Positions 8,153 through 15,012 of a stretch of 64,000 nt of DNA are shown in pieces (positions within the stretch are counted from its first letter, which is position 1; every line of letters begins with the position of its first letter). The translations under genes and the position numbers were made by a program. The notes below the pieces were generated by a model. It saw only the letters and a program-made list of their open reading frames with translations. It did no database searches and was not told where the DNA came from. Origin of the DNA: Candidatus Babeliales bacterium (GTDB taxonomy: Bacteria > Babelota > Babeliae > Babelales > JBFXEV01); contig JBFXEV010000001.1 in the NCBI GenBank assembly GCA_050179755.1, forward strand, positions 1,065,994-1,129,993. The letters are read 5' to 3'.

Positions 8153-8343
8153 TTAAAGTGAAAATTTTCTTGGTAATCGTATGCCAAACATAGTAGTAAT
8201 TTCGCGTGCATTACCGTCTGGTAATGTGCTTGCCAATTCTTCAAGCGTTATTGTGTGATTGCCTTGTTTGCCAATGATAATTACTTCTTCATCATTATAA
8301 ACTTCATCTTGCCCAATATCCACCATAAATTGATCCATGCAAA
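8153..8343 (-). pseudogene. Orphan 3' end of alanine racemase (CMDQFMVD...RLPRKFSL*)
   Basis: 8161..8343 matches 13896..14078 over 183 bp with one mismatch seen; no 5' part of the gene precedes it. Confidence 0.92.
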
Positions 8344-8347
8344 ATAG

Positions 8348-8443
8348 ATGCATGCGCAATACATCCAATTGCCTCAAGAGCTTCATCGTTATTTTGAGCT
8401 GCTGATGCAAGCGCTTGCCCGCTTTTCTTATAGACCACATTAA
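8348..8443 (+). pseudogene. Diverged 3' fragment of a D-cysteine desulfhydrase homolog
   Basis: AQYIQLPQELHRYFELLMQALA aligns ungapped to AQFHALPHEFHCYFEEPVQPFA (989..1054), 11/22 identical. Confidence 0.65.
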
Positions 8444-8538
8444 GTTTTACAAAATCTGACCCTTTGCAATATAATCAGAAAATCTTGGGATGCGCTCAGT
8501 CTCATATGTGTTGAACTAGTATACTTATTGGAGTATAA

Positions 8539-11500
8539 TTGAATGAGTTTTTACATCATGGAAGTGTCATCATTCCTATGTTTCGCTTAAGCTTGTCGGT
8601 ACGTTTTCAACTAATATTAAGTTTGATTTACTTAGGTCTGATTTTTTTTGTATGGCCTAGCAAGCTGTACACATATTCTGTGGATACAATAACTTTTTCA
8701 GGCTCTTCGTATCCAAATGATTCAAACACCATTAGAGATCAAAAACCGCGCATTTCGCAAGAAACTGCAAACATTCGTAGTCGTATTGAAAGCATTAATA
8801 ATCCTGATACTATCCCTTCTGGTACGTTTCCAAAAAATAACAATTATAGTGAGTATGAATTTATAGAAGAACGAGACCGAGATAGAAAAAGAGCAGAAAA
8901 AGAAAGACGTGGGCAAGCAGAAAACCAAAAACAAAAAGAAGAAAAAATTATACAGAAGGAAGTTGCAAAAAAGTTATTAGATCAATCAAATAGAATTTCA
9001 TCTTTTACACAGCAAACATCTTCCTCATCTCACTACGCTAAACAAGACAAATCACCTGACTATATAACAAAACGCGCCACGTATTTAAAAAAGTTCCATG
9101 ATGATCCTGATTATTACTACAGATCTACCGTCTATTTAAGGTATTCAAATTACCAAACAAGATCTCTTCTCGAGCAACACACGATTGATACGGATGAGTT
9201 TTATAATGAATTCTTCGGCAATCACTTGCAACATGGAATTCATGAAGAATATTTAAACATTGTCTCTCGTGTAACTAAAATTAATTTTGATAAAAACAAC
9301 TGTCAACTCAGATCATTTATTGTATTGGCTGTGCAAACTTCCCGCGATAACAATGTAAAAGGCAATTGTGTGACATCTTTAGAAATTAATGATTTTTGTC
9401 ATCATATCCTGAATCCTAATTATCATGGTTTTCTTGCAGGTCAAATTGCTCACTTACAAACAACTATTACCTATTATGAATCAAGTCATTGGAAACAAGC
9501 TCTAGGGTATCTAGCAGACGCTGCTCTAGGTGATCAAGAAATGCGCGCTTGCTTGAATGCTGCTCAAAAGTTTACTGAACAATTCAACATAATAAGGGAT
9601 TCTCAATATAATGTGCAAGTTATAGAAATTATGGAGCAATTAAGCTTCAATGAACTTTCTGATCTCACGGCGCAGCGCCAATTTGAATTGTTAGAAAAAC
9701 ATCATGAAGCGATTGCCATAAAAGCATTACGAGCGCTAAATCAACAAAATATAAAAGATTTGCCAATTTTTGGTTATGCAGTTTCTATTCTTAAATTAGA
9801 TAATCCACATAATGCATCAAATAGAAAGCTCATTGATTATTTATTATATTCTAATGATTGTCTACATCGCGTTCATGAGCTCACGAATACGCCATATAGC
9901 TCTTTTCAGCAAAAAAATCCTTTCTTCACCGATAAAGGTATTCTTAAAGAATATGCTATTATTGCAGATATTGATAATTTGCCTATTCCGCCATTAGATC
10001 ATTTAAAAAGCCCCGTATCTGCCCACGATTTATTATACACCTATTGTACAACTAATAAACTTGAGAAAAAAAAATTGGCTTATAGTGGCCTTTATCATGC
10101 AACCTATGCAACGATTCATCATCATTCTGAACGCTCAAAAGGCCATGAGTTGCTTGCCGATAAGTATTATAAAACACTCTATAGTAGTGTGTTCAGTAAA
10201 AATGAAAAACTTATTGATTGGTGTGATGATCTTGCGTGCAGTTATGAAAACGTGTATCAACAAGAGGTGCACGATGAGCTTGTTTGGCTAACTAATTATT
10301 ATATTGATACTCAAGAAAAAAGTATTAAAAAAGATGCAATCACCCTCAGATTGCTTGATGATATTGAGGATACTTTAATTACTGCCCATGGTTATAATCA
10401 AGATAATCAGTCAGAAAAAAGTCATGACCTTATTGCAAATATCGTACATAACTTTGGTATGCTGCCAAAAGAAAATCAAAAAACACCCGATCTATTTCAA
10501 TCACTCAATCTACTAGATGTTTCTAGAAATATAAGTAATAAAATACAAGCAAGAGTTGCACATATTAAAGTGCATGCATGGTTAAATGATTATAATCTTG
10601 AAGAAACACTAGAGTATGCTCGGCATGAGCTTTCAAAAATGGAAATACAGCATGGCAAATTAATATGCCAAGCCGATTCAATTCAAGAAAGACCTGATGA
10701 GGTAATTCAATCACTATGTTTAGCAGAAGTTCTTGGATTTAGCGTAAAAACTGATGCAGATACTATTGATATTGGTTGCATTCCTAAAAAAGATCTTGCA
10801 ACATTTAAAGACAATTGGCCAGAAGAAGAAGTGGTACAGAATGTATTCAACCTTTGGCCTGAAGAAGTCCCCTTGTGTTCTGCAGGGTCACAAGGTGCAG
10901 CATATGAACGATATGCTGATCGCTATGATGCCTATCAAGAAACCAAACTCACGCCGTATGTTTTTTTTGAAAGAACGTATGAAATTTCGAAAGAAGCTCA
11001 ACAATTGCTTGATAAAAATGGAATAGATAGTGATTATTTAAAAGTTGGAACATACAATCGTATACAACATCAATTACATATAGAACTCATTGATATTCTT
11101 GAACAAACAACATCTTTAGACGCTCATCAAGAAGTGTGCGATTTATTACGCTCGACAAACACTATGATGCTTGATTTTATATCAAGTGCAGCATATGAGA
11201 ATAAAAATGGCAATATTTTACGCACGTGGACTATTGCTGATTTTTGTTGGGCAACGCTAGATTGTGGTCAAGCAATTCTTGAGGGAGCTCTTGAGGGCGG
11301 TGCTAATGCATTGATCTATCCTTTCAATTGTCCTGTTGAAACAATCTTGTTTACCGTAGCAGGTAAATATATGTTGTATTATCAACTTACAAAGCTTACT
11401 TATGAACTTGGCAGTGCGGTGTACGATCATCTTTCAAAAGAACAAGAAGAAAATACATCCAGCGAAACAAAAACTGCAATACAATTACGCGATATTTTAA

Positions 11501-12462
11501 AAGCTGCATCTTCTTTCGGTGCACAATTTTTGGTAGACCATAAAATAGTAAATCCTATAGTTACGCAACGTATTAATTTAATGCAAAGTAAATTGGTCGA
11601 TAAGTTTGTATTAGAAAATACGACTCAATGGTCTAAAATGAGACCAGAGGCTATTAAAGCTCCACAGACAGCGCAAGTGCAATTGGCAAGTGGTGAAAAA
11701 ATTGAAGTAACTTTTCACAATGAAAATTTAGGGCAACGGCCGCAAGGCTTAAATTCTCCACAGAAACCGCGGAATTCATCGGGTGATAAAAAAGAATATC
11801 CAAGACCATCACCTGAAGAAATAGATCGCAATAGAGTAAATAAAAATTTAGCAGATAAAGCTCGTAAACAAAAAGCTATTGATAATGCATCTCAAAAAGT
11901 GGAAAGAACCAATCGTCAAAAAATTAATACTGCCCAAAATATTCAAGATGCACAAATTTGTATCTTACATAAATATGACGAATTAGAAAAAATTTTTTAT
12001 AAACATCTTTCACCTCATGCTGAATTTTTATATAAAAAATTTGGGATAAGGATAAAAGGAATTGATTTTTATCATCATATGGAAAGAGATTTTAATCAAA
12101 ATATAAAAGGTTATACAGGTTTTCATTCGGCACGCAATCATCCTGAGCATGTTTTTAAACTATTAGATGGTCCTAATGAGCATGGATTTGAAAATATTAT
12201 TGTTGGTAGTGCAAGAAAAATAAAAAAAGCTCCTACCAGTACGTATCCAAAAAACTGGGATGAAATTACTATCGGCCAGAGAGTTATTGAAGGGTTGCTT
12301 TCAGGAGAAGTTCATAAAAATAAGGGTGGAATCTTGGAAATACATGGAAAAGCTCAAAATTATTTACCTCATAGGGGTGTTGTTCCGTTTGATATTACAA
12401 TTTTTTTAGAACCTAGTGGAATGATAAGGTCATCATTTCCACAATTAAATTTTAGGAAATAA
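8539..12462 (+). CDS. Large secreted polymorphic toxin with C-terminal bacterial EndoU-like nuclease domain
   Basis: N-terminal hydrophobic leader. C-terminal HH...GYTGFHS...K.PTSTYPKNWD..I...GMIRSSFP resembles the EndoU_bacteria pattern (H, H, K; T.(F/Y)P..W; I.(T/S).(Y/F)P). Followed after 1 nt by an acidic ORF. Confidence 0.75.
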   Translation: MNEFLHHGSVIIPMFRLSLSVRFQLILSLIYLGLIFFVWPSKLYTYSVDTITFSGSSYPNDSNTIRDQKPRISQETANIRSRIESINNPDTIPSGTFPKNNNYSEYEFIEERDRDRKRAEKERRGQAENQKQKEEKIIQKEVAKKLLDQSNRISSFTQQTSSSSHYAKQDKSPDYITKRATYLKKFHDDPDYYYRSTVYLRYSNYQTRSLLEQHTIDTDEFYNEFFGNHLQHGIHEEYLNIVSRVTKINFDKNNCQLRSFIVLAVQTSRDNNVKGNCVTSLEINDFCHHILNPNYHGFLAGQIAHLQTTITYYESSHWKQALGYLADAALGDQEMRACLNAAQKFTEQFNIIRDSQYNVQVIEIMEQLSFNELSDLTAQRQFELLEKHHEAIAIKALRALNQQNIKDLPIFGYAVSILKLDNPHNASNRKLIDYLLYSNDCLHRVHELTNTPYSSFQQKNPFFTDKGILKEYAIIADIDNLPIPPLDHLKSPVSAHDLLYTYCTTNKLEKKKLAYSGLYHATYATIHHHSERSKGHELLADKYYKTLYSSVFSKNEKLIDWCDDLACSYENVYQQEVHDELVWLTNYYIDTQEKSIKKDAITLRLLDDIEDTLITAHGYNQDNQSEKSHDLIANIVHNFGMLPKENQKTPDLFQSLNLLDVSRNISNKIQARVAHIKVHAWLNDYNLEETLEYARHELSKMEIQHGKLICQADSIQERPDEVIQSLCLAEVLGFSVKTDADTIDIGCIPKKDLATFKDNWPEEEVVQNVFNLWPEEVPLCSAGSQGAAYERYADRYDAYQETKLTPYVFFERTYEISKEAQQLLDKNGIDSDYLKVGTYNRIQHQLHIELIDILEQTTSLDAHQEVCDLLRSTNTMMLDFISSAAYENKNGNILRTWTIADFCWATLDCGQAILEGALEGGANALIYPFNCPVETILFTVAGKYMLYYQLTKLTYELGSAVYDHLSKEQEENTSSETKTAIQLRDILKAASSFGAQFLVDHKIVNPIVTQRINLMQSKLVDKFVLENTTQWSKMRPEAIKAPQTAQVQLASGEKIEVTFHNENLGQRPQGLNSPQKPRNSSGDKKEYPRPSPEEIDRNRVNKNLADKARKQKAIDNASQKVERTNRQKINTAQNIQDAQICILHKYDELEKIFYKHLSPHAEFLYKKFGIRIKGIDFYHHMERDFNQNIKGYTGFHSARNHPEHVFKLLDGPNEHGFENIIVGSARKIKKAPTSTYPKNWDEITIGQRVIEGLLSGEVHKNKGGILEIHGKAQNYLPHRGVVPFDITIFLEPSGMIRSSFPQLNFRK

Positions 12463-12463
12463 T

Positions 12464-13264
12464 ATGAATTCATTAATATTAAAGTATAATGATGGTTTTT
12501 ATCGTTATAATGCATTCCAAATAACGAATGAATTGCTTGATTTGGCTGTGAGTCTGTTAACTACCGAAGAAATATGTACATCGGATTATTATAAAGAATT
12601 TATATACGAATTACCCTATAATACATACTCGGGTAATGCATATTATATGGAAAGAATAGATGATTATATCATTTTGGGTTGTCAATATAGCTTTGAAAGA
12701 GCATATTTGCATTTATATCAATTTGAAAATCTTATGAGTCAATGGCGAAAAGCATATGAAGATAAGCCAACTGAAATGATAATTTCAGTTGATGATAAAA
12801 ATTTTATTATCTCGTATGAAAAAGATAGTAAGAGTATAAAATTAACTTCAACATCAGAATATATAACATCAACATCGTTTTTAAGCGAATATCCTTATGC
12901 TGATAACTATGTTGAAATAGAGCCAATCTATGATGAATTACATGTGTTTGAATCTGATGATCGTAGGTTTAACGTATTTGCTTATTTACTGACAAGCAAT
13001 ATTCCTTCTTCAGATTATGTAGAAAAGTTGCAACAACCTCCTTATGAATATTATGATGATCGGTACTATTTAGCAATTGTTGAAGATAGAATTCTTATCT
13101 ATGATAAAACAATGGAAATAAAAGTATTGCCAGCCTATAATAAATTTCTTGATCTTATGAAACAATGGCCACTAGCAGTACATAAAAAACCAAAACTTAT
13201 TCGTATATATATTGAAAATGACTATGATCTTAAGATTTTTATATTGCAGCCAGTTTCTTTATAA
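12464..13264 (+). CDS. Putative immunity protein with two tandem homologous domains
   Basis: Directly downstream of the toxin; acidic, Tyr-rich, no signal; internal repeat LLT...SDY...PY...YY....D.I.....F..LM.QW.......KP. Confidence 0.7.
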   Translation: MNSLILKYNDGFYRYNAFQITNELLDLAVSLLTTEEICTSDYYKEFIYELPYNTYSGNAYYMERIDDYIILGCQYSFERAYLHLYQFENLMSQWRKAYEDKPTEMIISVDDKNFIISYEKDSKSIKLTSTSEYITSTSFLSEYPYADNYVEIEPIYDELHVFESDDRRFNVFAYLLTSNIPSSDYVEKLQQPPYEYYDDRYYLAIVEDRILIYDKTMEIKVLPAYNKFLDLMKQWPLAVHKKPKLIRIYIENDYDLKIFILQPVSL

Positions 13265-13501
13265 TAGTTTTTGCATGGCTTAAACAATTGAGTTAAATCT
13301 TAGAAAGACAAAAAGTTAATGAATAGCGGATTGAACTTTATATTATTTTTTTAACCAGGTGAAAATTTTATCTGGTAGGTTGTCGTTTGATGATCTAGTC
13401 GTTTGTATGTTCTGTGTATACGCTGTGACTGTATATAATCACATTTAATATGATAAAATAGATGTTAAGAGCATTTCTTAATTTTAATAAAGAGTAATAC
13501 A

Positions 13502-13836
13502 ATGAAAAAAACTATATGGTTGGTTGTTGTCCTGAGTGTAAATATTATTTCTCCGTAATGGGTATGATGCGTTATGTGTATTGTGCAGAAGATGATACAA
13601 CTGCTTCCTATTCAGCGATTTTATTAGCGACTGGCGTTGAAATTGTGACATGTGACAAAGAAAAAAAAGTATATCGTGCTTGTTTGACTCGTGTTGTATT
13701 ATCACAAAAACCGGGTCGATTTACATTTGAGGAACAAGACCTTGATTTTCCGCAATCAGTGTATGAGCAGTTAAAAGATAGGTATGAAGCAAATAAAACA
13801 CGTGCATTGCAGACTTTTCAAACAAATATAGATTAA
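13502..13836 (+). pseudogene. Frameshifted secreted hypothetical protein
   Basis: ATG at 13502 gives the leader MKKTIWLVVVLSVNIIS then a stop; the continuation VMGMMRYVY... is in the 13516 frame. Confidence 0.55.
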
Positions 13837-13887
13837 CAAAAACAGGAAGGCTTGAAATTGAAGAGATTGCGTGCGCATTTTCTTTTT

Positions 13888-15012
13888 TTATTGTAAAAAT
13901 TTTCTTGGTAATCGTATGCCAAACATAGTAGTAATTTCGCGTGCATTACCGTCTGGTAATGTGCTTGCCAATTCTTCAAGCGTTATTGTGTGACTGCCTT
14001 GTTTGCCAATGATAATTACTTCTTCATCATTATAAACTTCATCTTGCCCAATATCCACCATAAATTGATCCATGCAAATGCGCCCAATTATAGGGTAACG
14101 TTTGCCACGAATGATCACTTGCCCGCCATGCATAAATTGCCGATTAAAGCCGTCACCATAGCCAAGCGGCACCGTGATTACACGAGTATCTTTGGGTGCC
14201 TTCCACGTAAGGCCATAGCTCACGCCAGCACCCTCTTTGACTACTTTAAAATACACCACGCGTGAGCTGAGCGCCATAACTGCCTTTAATGCAATGCTGG
14301 TATGCATATGGGGTGCAGGTACTATGCCATACATAATGAGACCTGGCCGCACCATATCTAAATGGCTTTCTGGAAATTGTAAAATTGCGCCAGATGCTGC
14401 TATATGAAAAAGAGGTTTATTAGCAAAAATATGTGCATGGGCAACGCTTTGTTTAAAACGTTCAAGTTGTGTGCGAGCAAAAGTAAGGTCTTGTTCTTCA
14501 CCCATTGCAAAATGAGAGAAAATGCCCACAACATCGCACCATTGTGTGGTGCTTGCATACTCGATGAGTTTATGCGCATTGTAATAATGAATGCCCGTGC
14601 GCTCAATGCCGGTATCAATTTCAAGATGTATGCGTGCGCGCTTTCGTGCGTGCTTTGCATGTTGTTCAATAGATTCTAGCTTGTTTAGTGATGCTGCGTT
14701 AATATCAAGATCATACTGTAAAAAGAGTTCAATTTGCCGGTGTAAAATACCGCCAAGCACCACAATGGGCACTTTAATGTTTGCTTTTCTGAGTGCTATT
14801 CCTTCTTCAAGTAGTGCTACACCAAGCCATGAGGCTCCAATTTTTTGTAAGTGCTGAGCACATTCAATAAGGCCGTGCCCATACGCATTGCCTTTTACAA
14901 TGGGCATAACATGCGCAGAGCCTACAAACGCTTGTATGGCGTGGAAGTTATGCTCAAGAGCAGAAAGATTAATGTTAATATAGGTGGGCCGTTGTTGCAG
15001 TTCTTCATACAT
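13888..15012 (-). CDS. alr: Alanine racemase
   Basis: VKGNAYGHG PLP lysine motif, DMVRPG, VSYG, PLGYGDG, GRICMDQ. Confidence 0.97.
   Translation of the reverse strand: MYEELQQRPTYININLSALEHNFHAIQAFVGSAHVMPIVKGNAYGHGLIECAQHLQKIGASWLGVALLEEGIALRKANIKVPIVVLGGILHRQIELFLQYDLDINAASLNKLESIEQHAKHARKRARIHLEIDTGIERTGIHYYNAHKLIEYASTTQWCDVVGIFSHFAMGEEQDLTFARTQLERFKQSVAHAHIFANKPLFHIAASGAILQFPESHLDMVRPGLIMYGIVPAPHMHTSIALKAVMALSSRVVYFKVVKEGAGVSYGLTWKAPKDTRVITVPLGYGDGFNRQFMHGGQVIIRGKRYPIIGRICMDQFMVDIGQDEVYNDEEVIIIGKQGSHTITLEELASTLPDGNAREITTMFGIRLPRKFLQ

Follow-up and report, generated by a model that had tools for sequence, protein, structure and literature searches.

Genomic context of the putative toxin and immunity genes

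We analyzed a 64,000-nt stretch of Candidatus Babeliales bacterium (GCA_050179755.1, contig JBFXEV010000001.1, positions 1,065,994-1,129,993 of the forward strand; hereafter referred to as the window, whose numbering is used for coordinates), which belongs to a genome assembled as a single contig of 1,525,295 bases and rated 96% complete. The window carries a putative polymorphic toxin gene (8539..12462, + strand) followed by its candidate immunity gene (12464..13264, + strand), and both are located on an inserted low-GC island of about 5.55 kb (8344..13895) that also contains a 0.6-kb tail. The toxin gene is an uninterrupted open reading frame (ORF) encoding 1307 aa from a TTG start at 8539, with GGAG 6 nt upstream, or 1294 aa from ATG 8578, and the choice between these two starts is uncertain. 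The public gene call (P0002, 1260 aa) is probably too short, because it would cut off an N-terminal hydrophobic leader (8539..8673, + strand) that was recognized by hydropathy and is kept in orthologs. Residues 20-38 form the sole strongly hydrophobic stretch of the toxin (Kyte-Doolittle 2.0) and align with the hydrophobic leaders of three full-length homologs, the only three present in the word-indexed protein collection. The leader is predicted to be a Sec signal peptide or else a signal anchor; a lipoprotein reading was rejected, as only one ortholog has a Cys after the hydrophobic core.

Toward the C-terminus, a junction (GEKIEV...NENL) and a basic low-complexity linker (together 11674..11949, + strand) likely mark the boundary between the scaffold and the tip cassette. 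The linker itself (residues ~1061-1137; 11719-11949) is disordered and varies in length among homologs, and residues 961-1080 are only 23-40% identical among them. The initial annotation of this region had described the 1307-aa ORF, the hydrophobic leader, the basic linker and a set of C-terminal motifs, all of which are present in the sequence, and had correctly placed the next gene 1 nt after the toxin stop (stop 12460-12462, ATG 12464). This second gene, preceded by AGGA 6 nt upstream of its ATG, encodes a 266-aa protein formed by tandem duplication of a module of about 124 aa.

A divergent EndoU-type tip

The tip (residues 1138-1307; 11950..12459, + strand) was assigned as an EndoU-type RNase on the basis of homology and a fold model, with H1179, H1196, K1229 and T1233/S1234 as candidate catalytic residues. 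With the final 170 residues as query, an exhaustive phmmer search returned 11 matches among 1.84 billion representative proteins, including the match to P0012 (E = 3.4e-10). Two were full-length orthologs, and among the other nine, seven passed the cut-off of the Pfam EndoU model PF14436, one scored below it (18.7 bits) and one had no match. We then rebuilt the alignments of the window subfamily (5 sequences) and of the Pfam-positive members (8 sequences) separately and compared them by hhalign, which joined them over 129 columns (99.8%, E = 1e-27). The four candidate catalytic positions fall on the conserved H, H, K and S/T columns of EndoU_bacteria members, and H1179, H1196, K1229, P1232, Y1236, P1237 and W1240 are invariant in four orthologs.

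An AlphaFold (AF2) model of the tip built from 19 sequences was of high confidence (predicted local distance difference test score (pLDDT) = 92.7, predicted template modeling score (pTM) = 0.88), and the top five chains in VIA-align were all of the EndoU fold: Middle East respiratory syndrome (MERS) Nsp15 (Z = 8.4, root-mean-square deviation (rmsd) = 3.1, 122 aligned), the calcium-activated EndoU 9ftw (Z = 7.7), the CdiA-CT EndoU toxin of E. coli STEC_O31 (5hkq; Z = 7.4, 119 residues aligned), arterivirus nsp11 (Z = 6.0) and XendoU (Z = 5.9). Foldseek likewise placed XendoU first (probability 0.98), with EndoU and Nsp15 also at the top, though with weak E-values of 4e-3 and above; phmmer with the tip found nothing in the PDB. 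The active site given for 5HKQ in a section of PMC9086364 comprises H187, H204, K261, T262 and H321, and its H187-H204 spacing of 17 residues equals that of H1179 and H1196. These results indicate that the tip is a divergent EndoU_bacteria nuclease domain in which the predicted fold and the motif positions are kept, and thus bear out the initial assignment of an EndoU-like tip, with seven of nine distant matches passing PF14436, the hhalign match of 99.8% and EndoU-fold nucleases ranked first in the fold search.

PF14436 itself (gathering score 25.3 bits) did not match the whole toxin at E ≤ 0.1 or its last 200 aa at E ≤ 10, and a six-frame search of the genome with this model at E ≤ 10 hit four other places, the window tip not among them. 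The window subfamily contains two small insertions relative to canonical members, which probably account for this miss. The same two observations could be taken to mean that the locus is a decaying remnant, with a tip that has drifted from the EndoU family and no longer cuts RNA. We regard this as very improbable, given that the 3.9-kb frame is intact, the motif residues are kept in four orthologs, the tip fold is confidently predicted, and the immunity gene is likewise intact, its product diverging in step with the tip. Three EndoU-tipped relatives from other sources (P0014, P0017 and P0018) share a ...CIY or ...CIP end just after the nuclease domain.

A helical scaffold module found in Dependentiae

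By jackhmmer, we defined a module of about 190 aa in nine of the 8685 stop-to-stop ORFs (at least 50 aa) of the window's genome, which occurs twice in the window toxin and once in each of eight paralogs (~590-780 aa). The first copy spans residues 164-319 (9028..9495, + strand; independent E-value (i-E) = 9.2e-26), and the second spans residues 770-975 (10846..11463, + strand; i-E = 8e-90) and displays the motifs N..Q...H.E, N..G, DFC and G. The initial description of this part as a repeat scaffold was not confirmed, since it is not a repeat array and holds two copies of one module instead. The predicted model of residues 750-1060 is all-helical (pLDDT = 82.3).

No recognizable relative of the scaffold was detected in known families. 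The module profile had no match among PDB sequences, and fold searches with the scaffold model stayed at the noise level for helical proteins (best Foldseek E = 0.6; best VIA Z = 6.8 for designed helical repeats and 6.7 for CAMP factor). In the ESM Atlas, no cluster at ≥0.9 was found, and a look-alike score to colicins of 0.76 was below the level of evidence. Pfam and NCBIfam gave nothing meaningful in the toxin or the downstream protein. The reported absence of RHS, haemagglutinin, PAAR, LXG, WXG and HINT domains was reproduced, with no family match to the protein at E ≤ 0.1, and three N-terminal and central segments of the toxin matched no such trafficking family in Pfam even at E ≤ 10; judged by Pfam, the protein belongs to none of the Rhs/YD, PAAR, LXG/WXG or HINT classes. 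The proposal that the scaffold may be a new class is thereby strengthened, as no known trafficking domain was matched in Pfam, NCBIfam, and PDB sequence and fold searches.

We further examined the distribution of the module. In the word-indexed collection, the profile matched 13 proteins, and the only one with a named source was from Dependentiae and carried the NCBI name "EndoU domain-containing protein". Across Dependentiae, 97 of 261 genomes (72 of the 189 good-quality genomes) and 66 of 145 genera had matches; the module is often multi-copy, and counts per genome reached 12 or more. As far as tested, the scaffold family thus appears specific to Dependentiae (order Babeliales).

Variable tips on a shared scaffold

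The paralogs in the window's genome, which first surfaced through the PF14436 and phmmer searches and share a common central region, end in different tips. Paralog D carries an EndoU tip (55.2 bits) and paralog C a weak one (16.6 bits); paralogs B and F carry Ntox35 (29.7 and 27.7 bits) and paralog H a weak Ntox35 (14.2 bits). The tips of E and G appear PD-(D/E)xK-like as read from the sequence, with only a weak UPF0102 match in Pfam, and the tip of A is an unassigned domain. A signal-like leader is present in seven of the eight paralogs, E having no start codon near its N-terminus. After the leader, the layout of paralogs C, E, F, G and H recalls a membrane hairpin.

Each tip type is followed by its own kind of downstream gene: the EndoU tips (C, D and orphan fragments) by proteins of about 124 aa from one family, the Ntox35 tips of F and H by tetratricopeptide repeat (TPR)-like proteins of about 150 aa, the nuclease-like tips of E and G by a pair of 123/127-aa and 137/135-aa proteins, and the A tip by three related proteins of 94-137 aa. 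The scaffolds of E, F and G are near-identical (branch lengths 0.016-0.053) yet bear two tip types, and the collinearity of E and F ends at a Gly-rich motif (..NGGDG), beyond which they diverge. Orphan cassettes were found at the loci of C and E. At the former, a startless pre-tip copy is fused to a different EndoU tip and followed by three to four more immunity paralogs, a classic orphan-cassette arrangement. Toxins E, F and G cluster in one region (L009, G000:C1:420000-439500), which also contains orphan fragments of nuclease and EndoU type as well as several small genes resembling immunity genes.

To describe tips across the phylum, we surveyed 40 loci that were hand-picked from the module-profile listing, several of them from the same genomes, and that contained 47 module ORFs; the Pfam scan covered 46 of these, one partial ORF being left out. 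All toxin-domain matches were C-terminal. EndoU was the most frequent (9 above and 2 below the cut-off), followed by Ntox17 (5/46), Ntox21 (2/46), Colicin_D (1/46, 78.3 bits), a Cytotoxic domain of E3 type (1/46, 23.2 bits) and DUF4258 (2/46, below the cut-off), and the remaining 24 of the 46 ORFs had no Pfam match. We next built a quick maximum-likelihood tree of 56 modules, from which the window's first copy was left out. Tip labels changed at least 22 times on this tree, compared with a minimum of 8, and the window's second module grouped (support 99) with proteins bearing A-type, Ntox35 and untyped tips. One surveyed ORF (L049:1633-4263, G206) combines a pre-toxin HINT domain (PT-HINT, 43.6 bits) near the N-terminus with an Ntox21 tip, so some family members may be autoproteolytically processed.

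A family of candidate immunity proteins follows EndoU tips

The N-terminal half of the 266-aa protein matched its C-terminal half (98.1%, E = 7e-14) and the 124-aa family (92%, E = 6e-7), and the match of the C-terminal half to the family was not significant. Using ORFs within 700 nt downstream and on the same strand of the 46 surveyed module ORFs, we found the 124-aa family behind all nine EndoU tips that reach the Pfam cut-off (9/9) and behind one of the two weak ones; tips of other Pfam types had it in none of 11 cases, and untyped tips in 2 of 24. Since its family goes with EndoU tips and not with other types, the 266-aa protein is the likely immunity protein, and the ORF at 12464-13264 likely protects against the adjoining tip; the initial claim of a downstream immunity gene is accordingly reinforced by membership in a family that specifically follows EndoU tips (9/9 vs 0/11). 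Tip and immunity protein also diverge in parallel, with identities to the window pair of 58/56, 51/47 and 44/44 (% tip/% immunity), both falling together.

Four homologs of the 266-aa protein were detected, two of which are neighbors of the toxin and of its orphan tip in G121, a genome of the same genus; another is on a contig whose length equals that of the contig bearing a toxin ortholog. Pfam gave nothing above the cut-off for the immunity proteins of any tip type. A second tandem two-domain protein of the 124-aa family was observed in G121 (L031:2264-3067, 268 aa), of which both halves match the profile; it lies downstream of a toxin with a tip untyped by Pfam.

Exchange at the scaffold-tip junction

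Two relatives of the window locus are informative about exchange. In G121, an orphan cassette of linker plus tip lies behind the orthologous toxin-immunity pair; it is broken across two frames and comes with a 272-aa immunity gene of its own. Searches for related loci with two of the alignments gave, for one (A8), 89 pattern matches, none of them confirmed, and for the other (A2) the G121 record alone. In the window's own genome, a chimeric ORF without scaffold (L011:2652-3632, 327 aa) is a mosaic whose first 39 residues are 62% identical to the leader of an ortholog, whose residues 41-95 are 69% identical to that ortholog's post-scaffold junction, and whose last 155 residues are 56% identical to the paralog A tip; downstream of it lie, in this order, an A-type immunity gene and the degraded remains of an immunity gene of the window type (G000:C1:1368043-1369631 = L011:2044-3632). 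The GEKIEV...NENL junction of the window toxin is also present in this chimeric ORF, and the G121 orphan cassette begins there. Together with the parallel tip and immunity identities, the orphan cassette and the chimeric ORF show, at the level of sequence comparison, that exchange occurs at the scaffold-tip junction. A further hint, and only that, comes from the contig graph of run X3, which branches at the tip start (11957-11986), where a minor 399-base unitig (depth 3.1 vs ~40) diverges upstream and may represent an alternative scaffold-tip junction in the population.

The initial annotation had named invariant C-termini among homologs as an outcome that would speak against a polymorphic toxin, and the result was mixed. 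The three orthologs keep EndoU, so the closest homologs are not polymorphic in tip type, whereas the nearest scaffold relatives and the chimeric relative carry other tips.

Recent insertion of the island

The island is flanked by a 183-bp direct repeat. Its right copy (13896..14078, - strand) is the original, formed by the 3' end of the complete alr gene (13888-15012), and its left copy (8161..8343, - strand) duplicates that end within a fragment ORF (8153-8440) that matches Pfam Ala_racemase_C; the two copies differ by a single mismatch, at 8259 in the alignment. GC content falls from 0.343 in the toxin scaffold to 0.315 in the linker and tip and 0.277 in the immunity gene, compared with 0.415 in surE and 0.427 in alr on the flanks. 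In G121, alr and surE lie 12 bp apart, forming an empty site, and the ortholog of the window toxin is located elsewhere. The island is a single copy in the window's genome, and in metagenome contig sets its read depth equaled that of the flanks, with the 183-bp repeat unitig at about twice the flanking depth. No joint of the empty site was seen in the contig sets of three DNA runs, which are possibly the source samples. The cassette entered the alr-surE junction recently.

Such an insertion, with flanking 183-bp repeats and a different position in the sister genome, raises the question of a selfish addiction cassette, in which a toxin-antitoxin-like pair acting within the producer, without export, stabilizes a mobile island. 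The tight coupling of the two genes would suit this, as would the possibility that some paralogs are membrane-anchored with their bulk facing the cytoplasm. A 1300-aa scaffold, a conserved signal leader and a module present in 66 of 145 genera are nevertheless atypical of toxin-antitoxin systems. Neither an integrase nor a transposase was seen in the island (ORF listing and Pfam scan), no plasmid or phage relatives were found, and a search with the immunity alignment found no window-type immunity relatives in viral contigs. We therefore consider an addiction function improbable.

Two further features of the island were noted. The best promoter-like site (8446..8475, + strand; TTTACA-18-TATAAT, 11/12) lies 64 nt upstream of the TTG start, and we graded it as weak because the total of such sites across the region equals chance (32 vs 30.3 expected). 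The tail contains a 106-aa ORF (13516..13836, + strand) of unassigned status, without a Pfam or NCBIfam match; neither the genome nor the fetched loci contain a homolog of it. An 18-codon signal-peptide-like ORF beginning at ATG 13503 overlaps the 106-aa ORF out of frame, and 13503-13836 may be a frameshifted gene.

Proposed function and target

At the family level, the features that define polymorphic toxins (PMC3482391) are found here, namely a conserved region with varied tips, a tip-specific downstream gene and orphan cassettes, and the sequences argue that the toxin-immunity system is a genuine polymorphic one, built on a scaffold that is new and, as far as tested, confined to the phylum. 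Our reading of the locus, to which we give a probability of roughly 70%, is that it is a toxin-immunity cassette of a polymorphic toxin family, Dependentiae-specific as far as tested, whose product is an exported RNase aimed at rivals. By analogy with a clade that includes the tRNA-Glu anticodon nuclease of 5HKQ, the tip would be a metal-independent, cofactor-free RNase (a tRNase or a general one) that poisons any cell whose cytoplasm it reaches, and the two-domain immunity protein would bind and block the tip in the producer. Export may begin with Sec and would probably continue through type II secretins; no other dedicated export channel was found in the genome. The helical scaffold, we infer, would mediate target binding and entry, and the targets would be rival Dependentiae sharing the protist host cell or habitat, a reading close to the competition between co-infecting intracellular bacteria that the initial annotation had suggested.

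Searches of the genome support parts of this route. Two secretins were present, and PMC4776705 describes type II secretion, with gspD in two copies, as common to TM6 genomes. Hcp, FHIPEP and VirB4 were not found in this single-contig, 96% complete genome, nor was a ShlB-type CdiB, in a search whose control was silent.

Several observations weigh against the proposed function. Pfam and NCBIfam give the tip no direct match, and its sequence profile does not reach 5HKQ, with only a chance match in the PDB. The three full-length orthologs all keep the same EndoU subfamily (tips 44-62% identical to the window's), and the window locus itself is without an orphan cassette. The surveyed loci were hand-picked, with many from the same few genomes, and because they are related, the survey counts overstate independence. 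Paralogs C and E-H carry a second hydrophobic stretch after the leader, followed by a Lys/Arg-rich stretch, and this second stretch could keep the bulk of these proteins on the cytoplasmic side. We know of no delivery apparatus in Dependentiae for entering another bacterium, and as the scaffold has no recognizable fold relative either, the entry step is purely inferred. Lastly, obligate intracellular bacteria are described in part of PMC3482391 as mostly lacking immunity genes, with such toxins aimed at hosts.

The last point leads to an anti-host effector, whose RNase tip would degrade protist RNA for host shutdown or nucleotide supply and whose downstream protein would protect the producer before export. 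Dependentiae are obligate intracellular parasites, and secreted nucleases have been proposed to break down host polymers in Chromulinavorax (a passage of PMC6561590). Zhang et al. argue that, in intracellular bacteria, the targets of such toxins are mostly hosts (PMC3482391). Moreover, any cell that makes an EndoU RNase must carry an inhibitor, regardless of what the toxin attacks, and no contact-dependent secretion system was found in the genome, again with the ShlB control silent. Host attack nevertheless leaves much of the family's organization unaccounted for: immunity genes outnumber toxins, with arrays of 3-5 immunity paralogs, and orphan tip/immunity cassettes and tip swapping among near-identical scaffolds are not needed by a host-directed enzyme. 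Colicin D, colicin-E3-like and Ntox21 tips, in turn, are classic antibacterial RNases. We favor rival bacteria as the target because surplus immunity genes, orphan cassettes and colicin-type tips are products of interbacterial conflict; kin discrimination explains the additional immunity genes and orphan cassettes better than host attack does. We hold host attack to be unlikely, though a serious alternative and a more probable one than the addiction cassette.

Within the preferred reading, a more specific proposal, which we put forward tentatively and with less than even confidence, is that the module constitutes a new trafficking class, a self-contained, Sec- and type II secretion-exported, colicin-like entry platform that fires interchangeable RNase tips at same-host rivals in a phylum without type III, IV, V or VI machinery.

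The delivery scaffold defines how and against whom polymorphic toxins act, and this family offers a testable handle on protein toxin delivery without type III-VI secretion. With its full immunity sets, orphan cassettes, swapped tips and fresh insertion, the system points to ongoing warfare between bacteria that live only inside eukaryotic cells, a niche in which such conflict was thought exceptional. The 24 of 46 tips that remained untyped may be new toxin domains, and the family accounts for genes so far named "EndoU domain-containing" or read as digestive nucleases.

Comparison with known systems

The MafB/MafI system of Neisseria resembles the window locus in its signal peptide, conserved N-terminal region, variable tip (one of them an EndoU RNase), adjacent downstream immunity gene and multi-copy islands (as outlined in part of PMC4287609). 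In contrast to MafB, residues 1-1100 of the window toxin match no Pfam family beyond chance, and its scaffold is much longer, predicted to be helical, and contains a duplicated module. The Dependentiae producers, moreover, are obligate intracellular protist parasites, and no mafA-like accessory gene was seen in the island.

CdiA-CT(STEC_O31)/CdiI (5HKQ) shares the EndoU fold, the His-His-Lys triad with its 17-residue His-His spacing, a downstream immunity gene and orphan cassettes (sections of PMC9086364). Unlike CdiA, the window toxin has no haemagglutinin or two-partner secretion (TPS) domains and no VENN motif, as judged from the Pfam scans, and its immunity protein belongs to a family that is unnamed and unrelated to CdiI.

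The nuclease colicins (D and E3) are alike in their three-part layout with a long helical middle, a C-terminal RNase and a small adjacent immunity protein, and Colicin_D and Cytotoxic/E3-type tips occur on other members of the scaffold family. Colicins lack a signal peptide and depend on lysis proteins for their release. The window toxin, by contrast, carries a conserved, predicted Sec leader, no lysis gene was seen, and neither a colicin Pfam domain nor a translocation or receptor fold was matched.

Among intracellular bacteria, the amoeba endosymbiont Odyssella has full polymorphic toxin systems, in another phylum and with other trafficking domains, and Zhang et al. present it as an exception (PMC3482391, in the section on this organism). 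Dependentiae, where 97 of 261 genomes contain the module, would extend this exception to a whole phylum. Our full-text searches of the literature found no description linking Dependentiae, Babeliales or TM6 with polymorphic toxins or with this family, and the nuclease passages of the Chromulinavorax paper mention endoU only as a cytoplasmic digestive nuclease (PMC6561590). Polymorphic toxin systems as such are already known; what is new here is the scaffold class and the unnamed family of EndoU immunity proteins.

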